The notes under the pieces are model-generated. The model was not told where the DNA came from and made no database searches. It saw only the letters and a program-made list of their open reading frames with translations. A program made the position numbers and the translations under genes. A stretch of 32,000 nt of DNA from Okeania sp. SIO1I7 (GTDB lineage Bacteria > Cyanobacteriota > Cyanobacteriia > Cyanobacteriales > Microcoleaceae): assembly GCF_010672585.1 (NCBI RefSeq), contig NZ_JAAHGF010000042.1. One strand, written 5' to 3'. Position 1 is the stretch's first letter. Every line of letters begins with the position of its first letter. Shown here piece after piece: positions 2,265-11,910 of the stretch.

Positions 2265-2819
2265 CTACTTCAACTTTTGTTTCATAACAGTCACAAGTTT
2301 CACAAGTTGAGCCATTTGCTTTTTCAATGCTACAATTTCATTTTGCATTTTCTTAACTTGAGCTTGCAACGCCTTAACATTAGCAGAATTCGGCTCCGGA
2401 GCAGGAACTTCCATTGCCTCTGCCTCGCTAGGACGTATTTTGGCCAATTCAAAGGCTAACTTAATAGCTGCAGTTAATTCTTTTTTCTCAAAAGGTTTTT
2501 CTAGAAAAGCAAAAAAATGTTTCTCAAAAGGTTCAGGAATTTTATCTGTCACCTCTTCTTTACGACCTGACATTAATACCAATGGAATCTTCTTGAGTTG
2601 AGACTGGGATTGAATTTTTTGGAACACTTCCCAACCAGTAACTTTTGGTAGTAGAAAGTCCAACATAATTAAATTCGGGCGTTCCTTACTAATAAATTTC
2701 AGTCCCTCTTGGCCGTCCTTTGCCTCTATAACATTAAAGTTTCCTTGGGGAAGCATTTCTTTGACTCTTACCCTAATAACCTTACTATCATCAATAACTA
2801 AAATTTTGTGTCCTGCCAC
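2265..2819 (-). CDS. Single-domain CheY-like response regulator with C-terminal coiled-coil tail
   Basis: 184 aa. Receiver signature present: DD at residues 10-11, phospho-acceptor context IMLDFLLP, MSGR, and conserved K in LEKPF. The tail is heptad-like (QAQVKKMQNEIVALKKQMAQL). Confidence 0.85.
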   Translation of the reverse strand: MAGHKILVIDDSKVIRVRVKEMLPQGNFNVIEAKDGQEGLKFISKERPNLIMLDFLLPKVTGWEVFQKIQSQSQLKKIPLVLMSGRKEEVTDKIPEPFEKHFFAFLEKPFEKKELTAAIKLAFELAKIRPSEAEAMEVPAPEPNSANVKALQAQVKKMQNEIVALKKQMAQLVKLVTVMKQKLK

Positions 2820-2939
2820 GACTAGCTCCTCCAGTTATCAGTTAGTTTTTTCAAATTAATCTTATTAATCTTATCTATATTCCTGTCATCAGCCATTAAA
2901 GATAGCTAAATCACGGCTTCTACATTTATTTGTTCTAAT

Positions 2940-3150
2940 TTGACATCCTCCCGACGCTGCTCTGTGAGACAGCGCAGGATTCCCATCCATCAATCAAACA
3001 GACGCTCGCTGAAGGAATGACTCAGGGTGGGTTGACACATCATTGGAATCTGCTGGCTTTTCAGTCTGACGTTTCCTCCGTGTCCGATAAATAATCGACC
3101 GTTGACCCTCGGCGACTTCATTGAAAAGTGATAGCTGTACAGGATTTTTT
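2940..3150 (-). ncRNA. Predicted TnpB guide RNA (omegaRNA/reRNA) scaffold overlapping the tnpB 3' end and right end
   Basis: By analogy with characterised TnpB systems, the RNA spans the 3' end of tnpB to the right end. Terminal stems are visible (ATCCT.../...GGAGGAT and GCTGTCTC-ACA-GAGCAGC). The 5' boundary is a guess. Confidence 0.4.
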
Positions 3151-4571
3151 GCTACTGTTCCTTTGGCTATTTCAACCTTGGTTTTCGGTTGAACAGCTTC
3201 TAAAATATTAACTGCTGCATTAATATCTCTGTCGTGAAACGTGCCACAATTTAAGCAAGTCCATTCTCTAACATTTAGCTCTTTTTTGCCTCCTTTGAAA
3301 CCACAATTAGACCACTTTTGAGATGTAGGCTCCCACCTAGAAATAGTTCTAAATTCTCTACCATATTTCTCGCACTTAGCCTCAGTTAAAGTTCTAAATT
3401 GCCTCCAACCTAAATCACTAATTGCTTTCGCTAATTTGCGGTCTCTTGGTGCGCGTTCCCTCTCTTGGTCGGCATTCCCTCTCTTGGTGCACGTTCCCTC
3501 TCTTGGTCGGCGTTCCCTTGCGACTGGCGTCGTCGCGGGGTCGCACCGCTTGCGACTGGCGTCGTCGCGGGGTCGCACCGCTTGCGACTGGCGTCGTCGC
3601 GGGGTCCGACCGCTTGCGACTGGCGTCGTCGCGGGGTCGCACCGCTTTTTAACCATGCCGGAAACATTTAAGTCTTCTAATACGATAGTATCGTAATTTA
3701 TGGCTAAATCAGTTGATAGCTTGTGTAGAAAATCTGTACGTTTGCGCAGCATTCCGTTTGCGTTTGCGTAGCATCCCGTAGGGAAGCATTCCGAAGGAAA
3801 GGAAATGTCTTTGACTTTTGCGTGTTTGCGCAGCATTCCGAAGGAAAGTTTAGCAACTCTAACCCTTGCCTTTTCACGACGTTTGCTACCTAGCTCAGTT
3901 TTGGCAAATTTACGTTGAAACTTACCTAATTTCTTGAGGTTTTTTTTAAGAGGTAATGATAGCTTAAACTTCTCACCATTACTCAAAGTTGCAAAAGTTG
4001 AAATGCCCAAATCAATACCTATTGAGTTTTCAGTCTTAGGTAAATTTTCAGCACAAGTTTCTACTACAAAGCTAGCAAAGTAACGTCCTGCACTATCTTT
4101 AATTATAGTAACTGAGCTAGGATTGCTAGCTAATGGTCTTGACCAAATAATTTTAATTTTTCCTACTTTTGGGAAATAGATTTTATCTTGACCAATTTTG
4201 TAATTAGCTCCGACAAATCTAACTGCTTGTCTAGACTTTCTACTCTTGCATTTAGGAGGTTTAACTTTAATTCCTTTACGTTTTCCAGTACAACTATTAA
4301 AGAAATTCCTGTAAGCTTGGTCTAAATCTTTGAGAGACTGTTGCAATGGAGTAGATGCTACTTCCTTTAACCAAACTAATTCTCTTTTAGCTTGAGTTAT
4401 AAATTGTTTGGTTAAGTCCACATAGCTAGGTCTCTTGTGACCATTAGTATACAATTGGTTACAGTGTGCTAATGCACTATTCCAAACATATCTGCAACAA
4501 CCAAATAGTTGATTTAATTTGATTATTTGAATATGATTTGGATATATGCGATACTTGTATCTGGCTTTCAA
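2994..4571 (-). CDS. tnpB: IS200/IS605-family RNA-guided endonuclease TnpB with in-frame repeat insertions
   Basis: 525 aa. N-terminus is YKYRIYPN..Q...LNQLFGCCRYVWN. RuvC-I is IGIDLGIS and RuvC-II is LEDLNVSGM. Zinc finger is SNCGF...CLNCG, and RuvC-III is HDRDINAAVNI. The protein is about 100 aa longer than usual because of insertions at 3443-3646 and 3741-3845. Confidence 0.9.
   Translation of the reverse strand: MKARYKYRIYPNHIQIIKLNQLFGCCRYVWNSALAHCNQLYTNGHKRPSYVDLTKQFITQAKRELVWLKEVASTPLQQSLKDLDQAYRNFFNSCTGKRKGIKVKPPKCKSRKSRQAVRFVGANYKIGQDKIYFPKVGKIKIIWSRPLASNPSSVTIIKDSAGRYFASFVVETCAENLPKTENSIGIDLGISTFATLSNGEKFKLSLPLKKNLKKLGKFQRKFAKTELGSKRREKARVRVAKLSFGMLRKHAKVKDISFPSECFPTGCYANANGMLRKRTDFLHKLSTDLAINYDTIVLEDLNVSGMVKKRCDPATTPVASGRTPRRRQSQAVRPRDDASRKRCDPATTPVARERRPREGTCTKRGNADQERERAPRDRKLAKAISDLGWRQFRTLTEAKCEKYGREFRTISRWEPTSQKWSNCGFKGGKKELNVREWTCLNCGTFHDRDINAAVNILEAVQPKTKVEIAKGTVAKNPVQLSLFNEVAEGQRSIIYRTRRKRQTEKPADSNDVSTHPESFLQRASV
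3443..3646. repeat. Composite GC-rich tandem repeat inside tnpB: 4 x 19 nt then 4 x 32 nt (204 nt)
   Basis: 19-nt units (CTCTTGGTSSRCRTTCCCT) start at 3443, 3462, 3481 and 3500. 32-nt units (TGCGACTGGCGTCGTCGCGGGGTCGCACCGCT) start at 3519, 3551, 3583 and 3615. The ORF track shows ORFs in all six frames across it. Confidence 0.95.
3741..3845. repeat. Two SDR-like GC-rich mini-insertions inside tnpB (66 nt at 3741-3806, 21 nt at 3825-3845)
   Basis: Both begin with the identical 16-mer TTTGCGCAGCATTCCG. They bracket the codons for HAKVKD. Lengths are multiples of 3. Confidence 0.7.
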
Positions 4572-4712
4572 TGTTTTAGCCTGTTACTAATATTAAGCAG
4601 TATTACTATAGCATGGGTTGGCATTCCCATACGACGCTCCCCTACGGGATAGCGCGGGTATAAATGCCAACATTTAGATAAAAGCGCACAAAATTGTTAT
4701 TTTTAACTTTTT

Positions 4713-5672
4713 ATGGCTACAAAAAATGGTCGGTCAATATCAACTCAGGTCAATACTTCTGAGATGAAAGCCCAAATTCAGAGTATGCCAAAGTGGCTGC
4801 GTCCTTCTTTAGGGAAGGCTAGTGATATTTCTACTGTACAGAAAATTATAAAGCAGCGTCAGCTCCATACTATCTGTGAAGAAGGTCGCTGTCCTAACCG
4901 AGGCGAATGTTATGCCCAGAAGACAGCTACTTTTTTATTGATGGGTCCCACTTGTACACGGTCTTGTGCTTTTTGTCAAGTGGATAAGGGTCATGCTCCG
5001 ATGCCCTTAGACCCGGAGGAACCACAAAAAGTAGCTGAAGCTGTGGAATTATTGGGTTTGGAGTATGTAGTATTGACTTCTGTTGCTAGGGATGATTTGC
5101 CAGATGGCGGTGCTAGTTGGTTTGTAGCAACAATGACAGCTATTAGACAACGGAACCGAGAAACGAAAATTGAGGTTTTGACTGCTGATTTTTGGGGTGG
5201 TCAAGATGGACTTGGGGTTGAGAAGTTATCTGTTTCTCTAGCTGAAAGGCAAAAGCAGCGGATAAAGATAGTCATAGATGCTGAACCTGCTTGCTATAAC
5301 CATAATATTGAAACAGTACGACGATTACAAGGCCCTGTACGTCGTGGGGCAAAATATGAGCGATCGCTTGATGTATTACGGATTGTTAAGGAGTTAAACT
5401 CTAATATTCCTACTAAGTCAGGGCTAATGTTGGGACATGGAGAAACAAAAACTGAAATAATCGAGGCCATGGCAGATTTGAGAAAAGTAGAATGCGATCG
5501 CATTACTTTAGGCCAATATATGCGTCCTTCTCTAGCCCATTTGCCCGTACAAAAATATTGGACACCAGAAGAATTTGACGAGCTTGGAGCGATCGCTCAA
5601 CAAATGGGCTTTTCTCATGTGCGTTCTGGCCCTCTAGTGCGTAGTTCTTATCATGCTGGAGAAAGTGTTTAA
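4713..5672 (+). CDS. lipA: Lipoyl synthase (radical SAM)
   Basis: 319 aa. Carries both LipA cysteine clusters: [12 protein letters not shown] and [10 protein letters not shown] (the CxxxCxxC radical-SAM motif). The true start may be the downstream Met in SMPKWL. Confidence 0.92.
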
Positions 5673-6368: not shown

Positions 6369-6407
6369 GCCACTCTTGTGATACTCTATTCTTAAGAGTG
6401 GCGCTTT
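6369..6407 (+). terminator. Hairpin terminator candidate after the small ORF
   Basis: Perfect 9-bp stem GCCACTCTT (6369-6377) / AAGAGTGGC (6394-6402), followed by GCTTTAAT. Confidence 0.5.
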
Positions 6408-6410
6408 AAT

Positions 6411-6524
6411 GAAGTCAGAAGTTAGAAGTTATTTTTGTAACGGGAATTTTGAGCAACTCTCCAAAAATATTTCGCCTTAAAATACGGGGTTGCGCGACCC
6501 AATTACTTTGATAAAGATATATCT
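6411..6524. repeat. Dispersed ~120-nt repeat family, copy 2 (opposite orientation to copy 1)
   Basis: GAAGTCAGAAGTTAGAAGTTATTTTTGTAACGGGAATTTTGAGCAACTCTCCAAAAA...CCAATTACTTTGATAA aligns with the rc of 2064-2184. Confidence 0.7.
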
Positions 6525-10674: not shown

Positions 10675-11910
10675 TTGTACGCCAAAAAATTTGAATTAAA
10701 ACTCAGTAACCAGGAGCGCTCAAAAATGGCTCAATGCGCTGGTTATGCTCGTTTCGTTTACAATTATGGCCTCAGTATGGTTAATGGAACTTCTGCCATG
10801 ACCAAAGTTAACAAACGTGGTCAGAAAGTTAGCTTGAGTTACACATTACGAATTTTAGAAGCTAAAAAAGTCTTTACTAACTATGTAAAGAAGCAACCAG
10901 AATATGCCTGGACAAATAATTATTCGTCTCGCATTTATCAAAGTGCTTTTCAACATCTAGGTGAAGCATTTAAACGGTATAAAGAAGGAATTAGTAAATA
11001 TCCTAAATTGAAAAAGAAAAAAGACCGCCAATCTTTTACTGTTTATGACAGTAATGGAAAAGTTACAATTAGCTCTGGTAAAAAAATTAAAATACCAACA
11101 TTAGGGACTTTTCGATTATGGGAATCAATTCCTTGCACCACAGCAAGTCAGACTTTTACTATTAGCAGAACAGGGGAAAAATGGTTTGTTAGTTTTAGTA
11201 TTGAAGCTGAGAATTTGCCAGTTAATCCACTATTAGATGGACGTGTTCAAGAAACTTTTGGTATAGATGTTGGGGTCAAACAATTTGCCAGTATAGCAAA
11301 CCAAAAAAAGGCGGACTCCGAAGTTTTCAGTCTCCCAGACTCTATTAAACTAGAGCAATTAAAAATTGCTAAGTTTCAATGGCGTAATCGGAAGAAACAA
11401 CTAGGAGGTAAAGGTAAACCACCTTCAAAAAATGCTATTAAATATTACAAAAAACTCGCGAAGTACCATGACCGTGTGAAGAACGTGCGCAGGGATTTCA
11501 TAGAGAAAACTACTACAAAATTAGTGGGTAAAGTTAAGCACGTCTGCTTAGAGAGTTTAAATGTGAAAGGGATGATACAAAATGGTAAATTGGCAGCATC
11601 AATAGCAAGGCTTGGATTTTATGAATTTAGAGAACGATTGACAACCAAAATCGTAAGCTCTGGTGGGACAGTAGTGCTAGCTGACCAGTGGTTTCCATCA
11701 TCCAAAACTTGTCATAATTGTGGTTGTATTAACCAAGAATTAAAGCTAAAAGACCGTACTTTTAACTGCCCTCATTGTGGAATGAGAATAGACCGGGACC
11801 TGAATGCAGCACTGGTGCTATCTCAGTATGGAGAAATTAATCAAAAAAATAGGGTAGGCTGTACCCGAATTTACGCTTGTGAACTGGACGAGGGCGGCCT
11901 CCCAGGTTGA
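10675..11910 (+). CDS. tnpB: IS200/IS605-family RNA-guided endonuclease TnpB
   Basis: 411 aa. TTG start with GGAGG 8 nt upstream. N-terminus is KFELKLSNQ....CAGYARFVYNYGL. RuvC-I is FGIDVGVKQ and RuvC-II is LESLNVKGM. Zinc finger is CHNCGC...CPHCG, and RuvC-III is DRDLNAALVL. Confidence 0.9.
   Translation: MYAKKFELKLSNQERSKMAQCAGYARFVYNYGLSMVNGTSAMTKVNKRGQKVSLSYTLRILEAKKVFTNYVKKQPEYAWTNNYSSRIYQSAFQHLGEAFKRYKEGISKYPKLKKKKDRQSFTVYDSNGKVTISSGKKIKIPTLGTFRLWESIPCTTASQTFTISRTGEKWFVSFSIEAENLPVNPLLDGRVQETFGIDVGVKQFASIANQKKADSEVFSLPDSIKLEQLKIAKFQWRNRKKQLGGKGKPPSKNAIKYYKKLAKYHDRVKNVRRDFIEKTTTKLVGKVKHVCLESLNVKGMIQNGKLAASIARLGFYEFRERLTTKIVSSGGTVVLADQWFPSSKTCHNCGCINQELKLKDRTFNCPHCGMRIDRDLNAALVLSQYGEINQKNRVGCTRIYACELDEGGLPG

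Follow-up and report, generated by a model that had tools for sequence, protein, structure and literature searches.

A tnpB gene of Okeania sp. SIO1I7 carries, within its coding sequence, a 204-nt array in which a 51-nt hairpin mini-element is stacked in four layers, one inside another (3442..3645, or 3443-3646, plus strand; positions refer to the window, that is the whole 32,000-nt stretch of contig NZ_JAAHGF010000042.1 that we analyzed). The gene (2994..4571, minus strand) encodes a protein of 525 amino acids (P0001), recognized as TnpB by Pfam and by its match to the TnpB of ISDra2, and it belongs to a tnpB-only insertion sequence (IS) of the IS200/IS605 type (IS1341-like; 2940..4682, minus strand) with conserved left and right ends. 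We consider it quite probable that the array is a selfish hairpin passenger, sitting in a tolerant loop of TnpB and in a gene copy that is decaying. A selfish 51-nt element would have been caught in tnpB without any function for the nuclease, and would persist there for two reasons: insertions are tolerated in this loop, and this tnpB copy was already escaping selection. It may have arrived as a preformed composite or have been copied by recombination from another array, arrival by one or other of these two routes being as likely as a canonical insertion.

The array is missing from near-identical copies of the same IS

An earlier note on this DNA had described four 19-nt units followed by four 32-nt units, inserted in frame beside the RuvC-II glutamate of TnpB, where ordinary TnpBs and a second tnpB of the window are contiguous. 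Each of these points held when we examined the repeats and the empty sites. By using Tandem Repeats Finder, we recovered a 19-nt unit in 4.1 copies at 3442-3518 (also period 38, 2.0 copies, 94% matches) and a 32-nt unit in 4.1 copies at 3517-3647. The bounds of the insert carry a 1-nt ambiguity, but its length is exactly 204 nt. It encodes about residues 309-376 (68 amino acids), preceded in the protein by ...LEDLNVSGMVK and followed by RKLAKAISD.

First, three congeners (G006, G003 and G001) have the same IS at other loci, with 96-97% nucleotide identity, and at the corresponding site ATGGTTAAAA runs directly into ACCGCAAATTAGC, giving an uninterrupted GMVKNRKLAKAISD. Second, the closest paralogs in the genome itself (C26, C55 and C66) leave a clean 204-nt gap at this site, with GMVKNRKLAKAISD again uninterrupted, and the empty-site DNA of the near-identical IS copies reads GGTTAAAA followed immediately by ACCGCAAA. 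Third, a public contig runs from 3441 straight into 3646, with 201 nt of flank free of mismatches; the public-run contigs compared come from related organisms and metagenomes, not from the source strain. The second tnpB of the window (10675-11910) likewise reads LESLNVKGMIQNGKLAASIA without interruption, and the canonical 13-residue spacing is kept in 96 of the 108 scorable proteins among the best 120 database homologs. No target-site duplication was found flanking the insert in the comparison with near-identical empty IS copies. Judged by these alignments, the array is a recent insertion into tnpB.

The insert is stop-free in all six frames, as the earlier note had pointed out, but this is not a remarkable property. 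Only 51 nt of its sequence are unique, with a GC content of 70%, and 46% of the arrays built from a shuffled 19-mer (four copies) and a shuffled 32-mer (four copies) were equally open, against 0.8% when the whole insert was shuffled. Six-frame openness is therefore near chance for such a repeat structure and GC content.

The 19-nt and 32-nt units are two parts of one nested hairpin element

The four 19-nt units, hereafter the 'a' arms (TCTCTTGGT-NNN-NN-TTCCC; 3442..3517, plus strand), have the alternating cores GCG, CGG, GCA and CGG. The four 32-nt units, or 'B' modules (3518..3645, plus strand), each consist of an inner hairpin (GCGAC-N7-GTCGC) joined through GGGG to a tail; the four tails, each described as the complement of an 'a' core, read CGC, CGC, CCG and CGC. 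The palindromes that had been noticed in the 32-mer (GCGAC/GTCGC and TGCGAC/GTCGCA) are present. The direction from a to B is antisense to tnpB.

Both units are dispersed throughout the genome, usually together and with B directly after a, and the variable triplet in the core of a (GGT-NNN) is the complement of three bases in the tail of B (NNN-ACC). At loci with a single aB, core and tail were complementary in 34 of 44 cases (GCG:CGC in 25, CAG:CTG in 9). When we paired the arms of aaBB loci, nested pairing matched in 24 of 34 pairs and parallel pairing in only 3 of 34. The middle pair of the inner hairpin of B also covaries (TA 22, AT 16, CG 11), and none of 2000 column shuffles reached the observed pairing. 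The 19-mer and the 32-mer are thus the 5' arm and the 3' hairpin-plus-arm of one 51-nt imperfect hairpin, and arrays grow by stacking at the junction between a and B, so that n arms are followed by n modules, nested rather than in tandem. In the window array, the four layers correspond to two 102-nt aaBB composites, one within the other. Serial hairpin folding, also proposed in the earlier note, was recovered in this form, since the tnpB-sense strand of the array is predicted to fold into four stems arranged concentrically, with a side hairpin on every one of them. As evidence for the fold we used covariation, because energy alone is uninformative for such a GC-rich sequence (whole-array fold energy against dinucleotide shuffles, z = -1.75 on the plus strand and -1.9 on the minus strand).

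This structure also removes what had looked like a puzzle of frame, namely that neither 19 nor 32 is a multiple of 3. The two lengths are halves of one element, and since each layer measures 51 nt (3 x 17, that is 17 codons), balanced arrays keep the reading frame without selection.

A different origin would be slippage in place, with two independent and adjacent tandem repeats of 19 and 32 nt whose frame was kept by selection on the open reading frame (ORF). Tandem Repeats Finder does score both tracts as clean tandem repeats, and within the window a1 resembles a3, a2 resembles a4 and B2 equals B4, as if from a 38-nt and a 64-nt duplication; unbalanced forms also occur in the genome (aaB 18, aBB 9, aaaB 2), one of which, in C21, breaks a tnpB frame. 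However, slippage leaves unexplained the complementarity between a core and B tail and their covariation from locus to locus, and balanced aB and aaBB are the commonest forms. Moreover, one 102-nt event accounts for the frame without two coincident duplications. A tnpB of another subfamily in a congener (G003:C24) is the most telling case. It has at the same site an in-frame a3B3 array of 153 nt whose three stems all differ and whose tails mirror the order of the arms (GCG, CAG and CGG in the arms, then CCG, CTG and CGC in the tails), an arrangement that cannot be obtained by duplicating each half. For this reason we favor nesting and regard slippage as an unlikely origin of the array.

The element is widespread in the genome and invades coding sequences in frame

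We found 92 composite loci in the genome (among them aB 44, aaBB 17, aaB 18, aBB 9, aaaB 2 and a4B4 1, the last being the window array). The commonest balanced lengths are 51 nt for aB (23 loci) and 102 nt for aaBB (9 loci). Allowing up to 3 mismatches, the 32-mer is present in all six of the other same-genus genomes searched and in one related genus (G017), with a single match in another (G022); it was not found in the remaining 32 genomes searched.

Twenty-three of the 92 loci lie inside open frames of at least 150 codons. Their hosts include a 2362-aa TPR protein, an 1836-aa protein, an 1818-aa kinase, a 1439-aa membrane protein and several other tnpBs, and the insert lengths in these ORFs are mostly multiples of 3 (51, 102, 96, 153 and 108 nt). 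A gene that reads antisense to the a-to-B direction yields KRCDPATTPVARERAPR-like peptides in any of the three frames. Genuine coding sequences nearly always read the element in antisense, which gives a hydrophilic, Arg/Pro/Asp-rich peptide, while the sense reading would give a Cys/Trp/Leu-rich one; the two same-orientation cases in frames of more than 200 codons sit upstream of likely start codons. In G006 and G003, the kinase ortholog is missing exactly the 96-nt copy, and no clear duplication is seen at the kinase site. Searching the databases with the 70-aa loop returned a hypothetical protein (90% identity), a histidine kinase, a response regulator, two Ser/Thr kinases and a group II intron reverse transcriptase, and two of the three named records carrying the loop peptide come from Okeania. 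The element therefore invades ORFs generally, as a genus-wide habit that is not specific to TnpB, and the arrangement that had seemed unusual to the earlier note is not unusual in this genus, since kinases, a TPR protein, membrane proteins and other tnpBs also carry the element in frame. This also accounts for the low-complexity, Arg/Pro/Asp-rich loops, of which KRCDPATTPVARERAPR is an example, that recur in these genomes in proteins without relation to one another.

One and the same heptamer (TGTTGCC, TTCTGAC, TGTTCCC and others) stands on both sides of the element at 32 of the 92 loci; a T follows it at 84 loci and a C precedes it at 66. The arms of the element pair over only about 6 + 3 bp. 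No link with a Y1 transposase was found, none of the 10 PF01797 matches in the genome lying within 1.5 kb of an element. The mirrored, covarying stems offer a signature with which the mobilizing enzyme could be sought.

The 1439-aa membrane protein (G000:C55:155334-156184, L017) contains in frame a mosaic block of 159 nt that its G001 ortholog lacks, and which combines a run of heptamer repeats, one aB unit and a third module; the peptide encoded by this third module is KKWMGTQTPTNCQHPVEGGVLNPKEK, and the module is seen again in several large ORFs elsewhere (C99, C16 and C33). In another tnpB subfamily, NIL and AAG near the C-terminus are separated by an in-frame variant aB-like unit, made of CTTCTTGGTGGGCGTTCCC, a hairpin and GGGTTCCCATCC (G000:C25:65393, C44:325196, C44:539327, C24:47425, C84:972 and C2:42437). 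The C-terminal part of tnpB usually overlaps the guide-RNA scaffold.

Position of the insert in TnpB and the question of function

The codon of the RuvC-II catalytic glutamate (E299; 3675..3677, minus strand) was located by alignment to the ISDra2 TnpB chain, where its counterpart is E278. The insert starts 9-10 residues downstream of E299, and in the same alignment its point of entry maps between ISDra2 K287/N288 and R289. It would therefore fall in the lid, the subdomain gating the active site, either inside it or where it begins. In TnpB, this lid obstructs the RuvC site and also acts as a sensor of the guide-target heteroduplex (bioRxiv 10.1101/2025.02.11.637750; PMC13639567). In an AlphaFold2 model built with 58 homologs, the core has a predicted local distance difference test score (pLDDT) of 85-95, and residues 303-376 fall below 50, as do, with similarly low confidence, residues 250-276, which contain the other insertions described below. 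The 68-aa low-complexity loop is thus predicted to be disordered. The earlier note had placed such a loop next to the catalytic center, and the alignment sharpens this to the lid region.

The same codon boundary is occupied by inserts in other tnpBs. We observed a single aB in C25, in C44 and in the Okeania protein P0099, and an aaB of 70 nt, which breaks the tnpB frame, in C21. A 21-nt element (SYGMLRK) is found there in C30, in C37 and in seven database proteins, and twice (42 nt) in one more, and a 24-nt element in one protein. Comparison of C25 (G000:C25:64100-65600) with C44 (323880-325400) revealed an identical central block, including the lid insert, between differing flanks; the tnpB of C44 is frameshifted and that of C25 is an intact-looking 406-aa ORF with a 17-aa insert. 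This pattern indicates that part of the recurrence at the lid site may stem from gene conversion among tnpB paralogs. In nature, between 7 and 68 residues have repeatedly been added to the loop just after the RuvC-II glutamate, which may offer a way to engineer the lid, for instance by domain insertion, although most carriers look degraded.

Such a position raises the alternative that the insert acts for or against the nuclease, either as a lid extension that gates or disables RuvC, in which case a hyperparasite would disarm the IS, or as a length-variable switch. Besides the location between K287/N288 and R289, this would fit the use of one codon boundary, in different tnpB lineages, by aB arrays of 51, 153 or 204 nt, by 21- or 42-nt elements and by a 24-nt element; it would also fit the retention of the 17-aa insert in the intact-looking C25 ORF and, for a switch, the fact that a single 19- or 32-nt change would shift the frame. 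Several insert-bearing copies are, however, clearly broken (frameshifts in C21 and C44, a zinc-finger cysteine changed to tryptophan in the window), the block common to C25 and C44 points to spread by gene conversion rather than repeated selection, and the element also resides in many unrelated proteins.

A second assembly (GCA_010692435.1) bears directly on the switch. It covers the same locus on a contig of 19,787 nt (49,879 nt for the contig studied here), with 99.33% identity over 7.5 kb, and both its array and its 525-aa protein are identical to those of the window. Over the same 7.5 kb, two heptamer repeats have changed, by +7 nt at 221 and by -26 nt at 6406-6431. The length-variable tracts are the heptamer repeats CTGATAA (222-246) and GAAGTTA (6406-6431), not the 19/32-nt array. 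In this single comparison, an identical array beside varying heptamers points away from hypermutability and supports the copy number of 4 + 4; variation in unit number that toggles the frame was not found in this one comparison with a 99.3%-identical assembly. We therefore regard a function of the insert for or against the nuclease as rather improbable. Self-nesting, frame-neutral mobile micro-elements of a hitherto undescribed kind that behave as hyperparasites, gating or attenuating TnpB at the lid and toggling the frame through unbalanced 19- or 32-nt changes, are an equally doubtful proposition. Among the three options of the earlier note (tolerated passenger, regulatory insertion, hypermutable switch), the tolerated passenger fits best, and no support was found for the hypermutable switch.

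That the segment is an ancestral domain of the TnpB subfamily, or its copy number an assembly artefact, is scarcely credible: a 204-nt array of short repeats is hard for short reads, but its units differ at diagnostic positions that anchor their order, the array is the same in a separate, independent assembly (GCA_010692435.1), and the near-identical IS copies, the paralogs and 96 of 108 scorable homologs lack the segment. The ancestral-domain reading, for which the earlier note had looked to an equivalent segment in all orthologous tnpBs, was accordingly rejected.

State of the tnpB copy

The passenger reading includes a decaying host gene, and the earlier note had named an untranscribed and otherwise degraded gene as a sign against its own proposal. 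The window TnpB contains the Pfam domains HTH_OrfB_IS605 (9e-17), OrfB_IS605 (RuvC; 2e-20) and Cas12f1-like_TNB (5e-21), all passing the curated cut-offs, and it matches the ISDra2 TnpB structures (PDB 8EXA/8H1J) with E=5e-49. The RuvC triad (D187, E299 and D449) is present in full, in columns that are invariant or near-invariant among homologs. In the zinc finger (CxxC...CxxC), however, the homolog alignment shows the first cysteine replaced by tryptophan (Trp420, TGG at 3312..3314, minus strand). The window reads KWSNCG where 101 of 104 matched homologs have the cysteine, in a column with 90% conservation or more; CLNC, the second pair, is retained, and contigs from other runs have a Cys codon at 3312. 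In addition, the near-invariant Phe108 has become Cys (F108C).

Two further in-frame mini-insertions interrupt the gene. The first, of 63 nt (SFPSECFPTGCYANANGMLRK; 3741..3803, minus strand), belongs to a 21-nt element family and is absent from congeners and paralogs, and a contig joins 3740 to 3804, thereby skipping it. The other, of 21 nt (SFGMLRK; 3825..3845, minus strand), is absent from the congener copies, and a contig omits these 21 nt. The 21-nt family (TCCTWCGGAATGCTGCGCAAA) encodes S[FY]GMLRK, is distinct from the 51-nt element and occurs at three homologous sites in the paralog C37. Taken together, the substitutions and insertions suggest that this tnpB copy is probably inactive or impaired, and decaying.

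Several observations weigh against this interpretation of the gene and of its insert. The ORF is open across 525 codons with an intact RuvC D-E-D triad, so that some residual function may persist despite C420W, F108C and the two extra insertions. The copies of the IS family have ratios of nonsynonymous to synonymous differences (pN/pS) of 0.12-0.40, that is purifying selection on the family as a whole, and the changes specific to the window are too few to prove relaxed selection on this copy. As for the site, at least four kinds of mini-element stand at the lid codon boundary in different tnpBs, which could mean that it matters beyond tolerance. The tnpB site itself (between GCGG and TTTTT) has no flanking heptamer repeat and a G instead of C at -1, and arrival here may differ from that of the rest of the family. 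Finally, the nesting is imperfect, with the innermost layer of the window unpaired (a core CGG, B tail CGC), and a 38-nt plus a 64-nt duplication could equally yield the window array taken alone.

Comparison with known small repeats

Small dispersed repeats (SDRs), named SDR1-8, were reportedly described in Nostocaceae by Elhai et al. in 2008. SDR units measure 21-27 nt, a range into which the co-resident 21-nt element falls. SDR-like repeats are reported not to have been found outside Nostocaceae (PMC5861425), a restriction that does not hold for the 51-nt element. Like the SDRs (PMC5861425, PMC3116915), the latter is tiny, GC-rich, structured and dispersed in a filamentous cyanobacterium, is associated with heptamers and is found within other repeats and genes; no transposase is assigned to either. 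Unlike them, it has a 51-nt unit (19 + 32) and its nearest named homologs are in Okeania (Microcoleaceae), the two being compared here by description only. The earlier note was thus right about the class, small dispersed repeats invading ORFs; the genus it mentioned was Nostoc, which is not where the nearest named homologs lie.

Another counterpart is the Rickettsia palindromic element (RPE), a palindromic selfish DNA found in frame in many unrelated Rickettsia genes (Ogata et al. 2000, as presented in PMC10969869). The 51-nt element likewise is a hairpin repeat lying in frame in many unrelated ORFs, and both add a peptide loop apparently compatible with the fold (PMC10969869). RPEs differ by their size (~100-150 bp) and their alphaproteobacterial, intracellular parasitic host, and self-nested stacks are not reported for them. 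With repetitive extragenic palindromic sequences (REPs), whether in bacterial interspersed mosaic elements (BIMEs) or in REPINs, the 51-nt element has in common short hairpin repeats in composite mosaics and, at the tnpB site, the lack of an obvious target duplication. In contrast to REP/REPIN-RAYT systems, no Y1 transposase is nearby and the 51-nt element is frequently intragenic, whereas REPs are extragenic. Two Okeania genomes had the highest diversity of conserved miniature inverted-repeat transposable elements among the prokaryotes surveyed (PMC11602168); our literature search on Okeania and Trichodesmium returned nothing specific on such repeats. Closest in kind are the SDRs of Nostoc and, among in-frame palindromic elements, the RPEs of Rickettsia; membership in a named family could not be shown.

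The array thus documents a 51-nt hairpin family, found mainly in one genus, that nests within itself and colonizes coding sequences in frame. The self-nesting architecture and the repeated insertions into the lid loop of TnpB are the parts worth following.

The host IS

The boundaries of the IS (2940 and 4682) are the points at which homology to the 96-97% identical congener copies begins and ends, and both ends align with paralogs of the genome itself (C26, C66 and C37). Its right end, on the guide-RNA side, is conserved with the paralogs; in the window interval 2800-4800, an Rfam search to E=1 gave no match and no terminator-like site was seen. Compared with the TnpB of ISDra2 (PDB 8EXA/8H1J/8BF8), the window protein has the same three Pfam domains and the same D-E-D triad, and the ends of its IS are conserved. 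Unlike that protein, it has lost the first zinc-finger cysteine to tryptophan and has about 96 extra residues, with three in-frame mini-insertions, the largest in the lid region; insert-free copies of the same IS, shorter by the same ~96 residues, have ORFs of 433-443 aa from stop to stop. The genome contains well over a hundred tnpB-like matches, and among the best 120 database homologs the named ones come from Okeania, Trichodesmium, Dapis and Hydrocoleum, which makes the host an Okeania-like member of the marine Microcoleaceae and not a Nostoc. Lastly, codons 203-206 (3959-3970) of the window gene carry a change from EAPK to KLSL that is common to the paralog C37 only, while elsewhere the gene most resembles the copies in the congeners, a patch that hints at recombination between tnpB copies.

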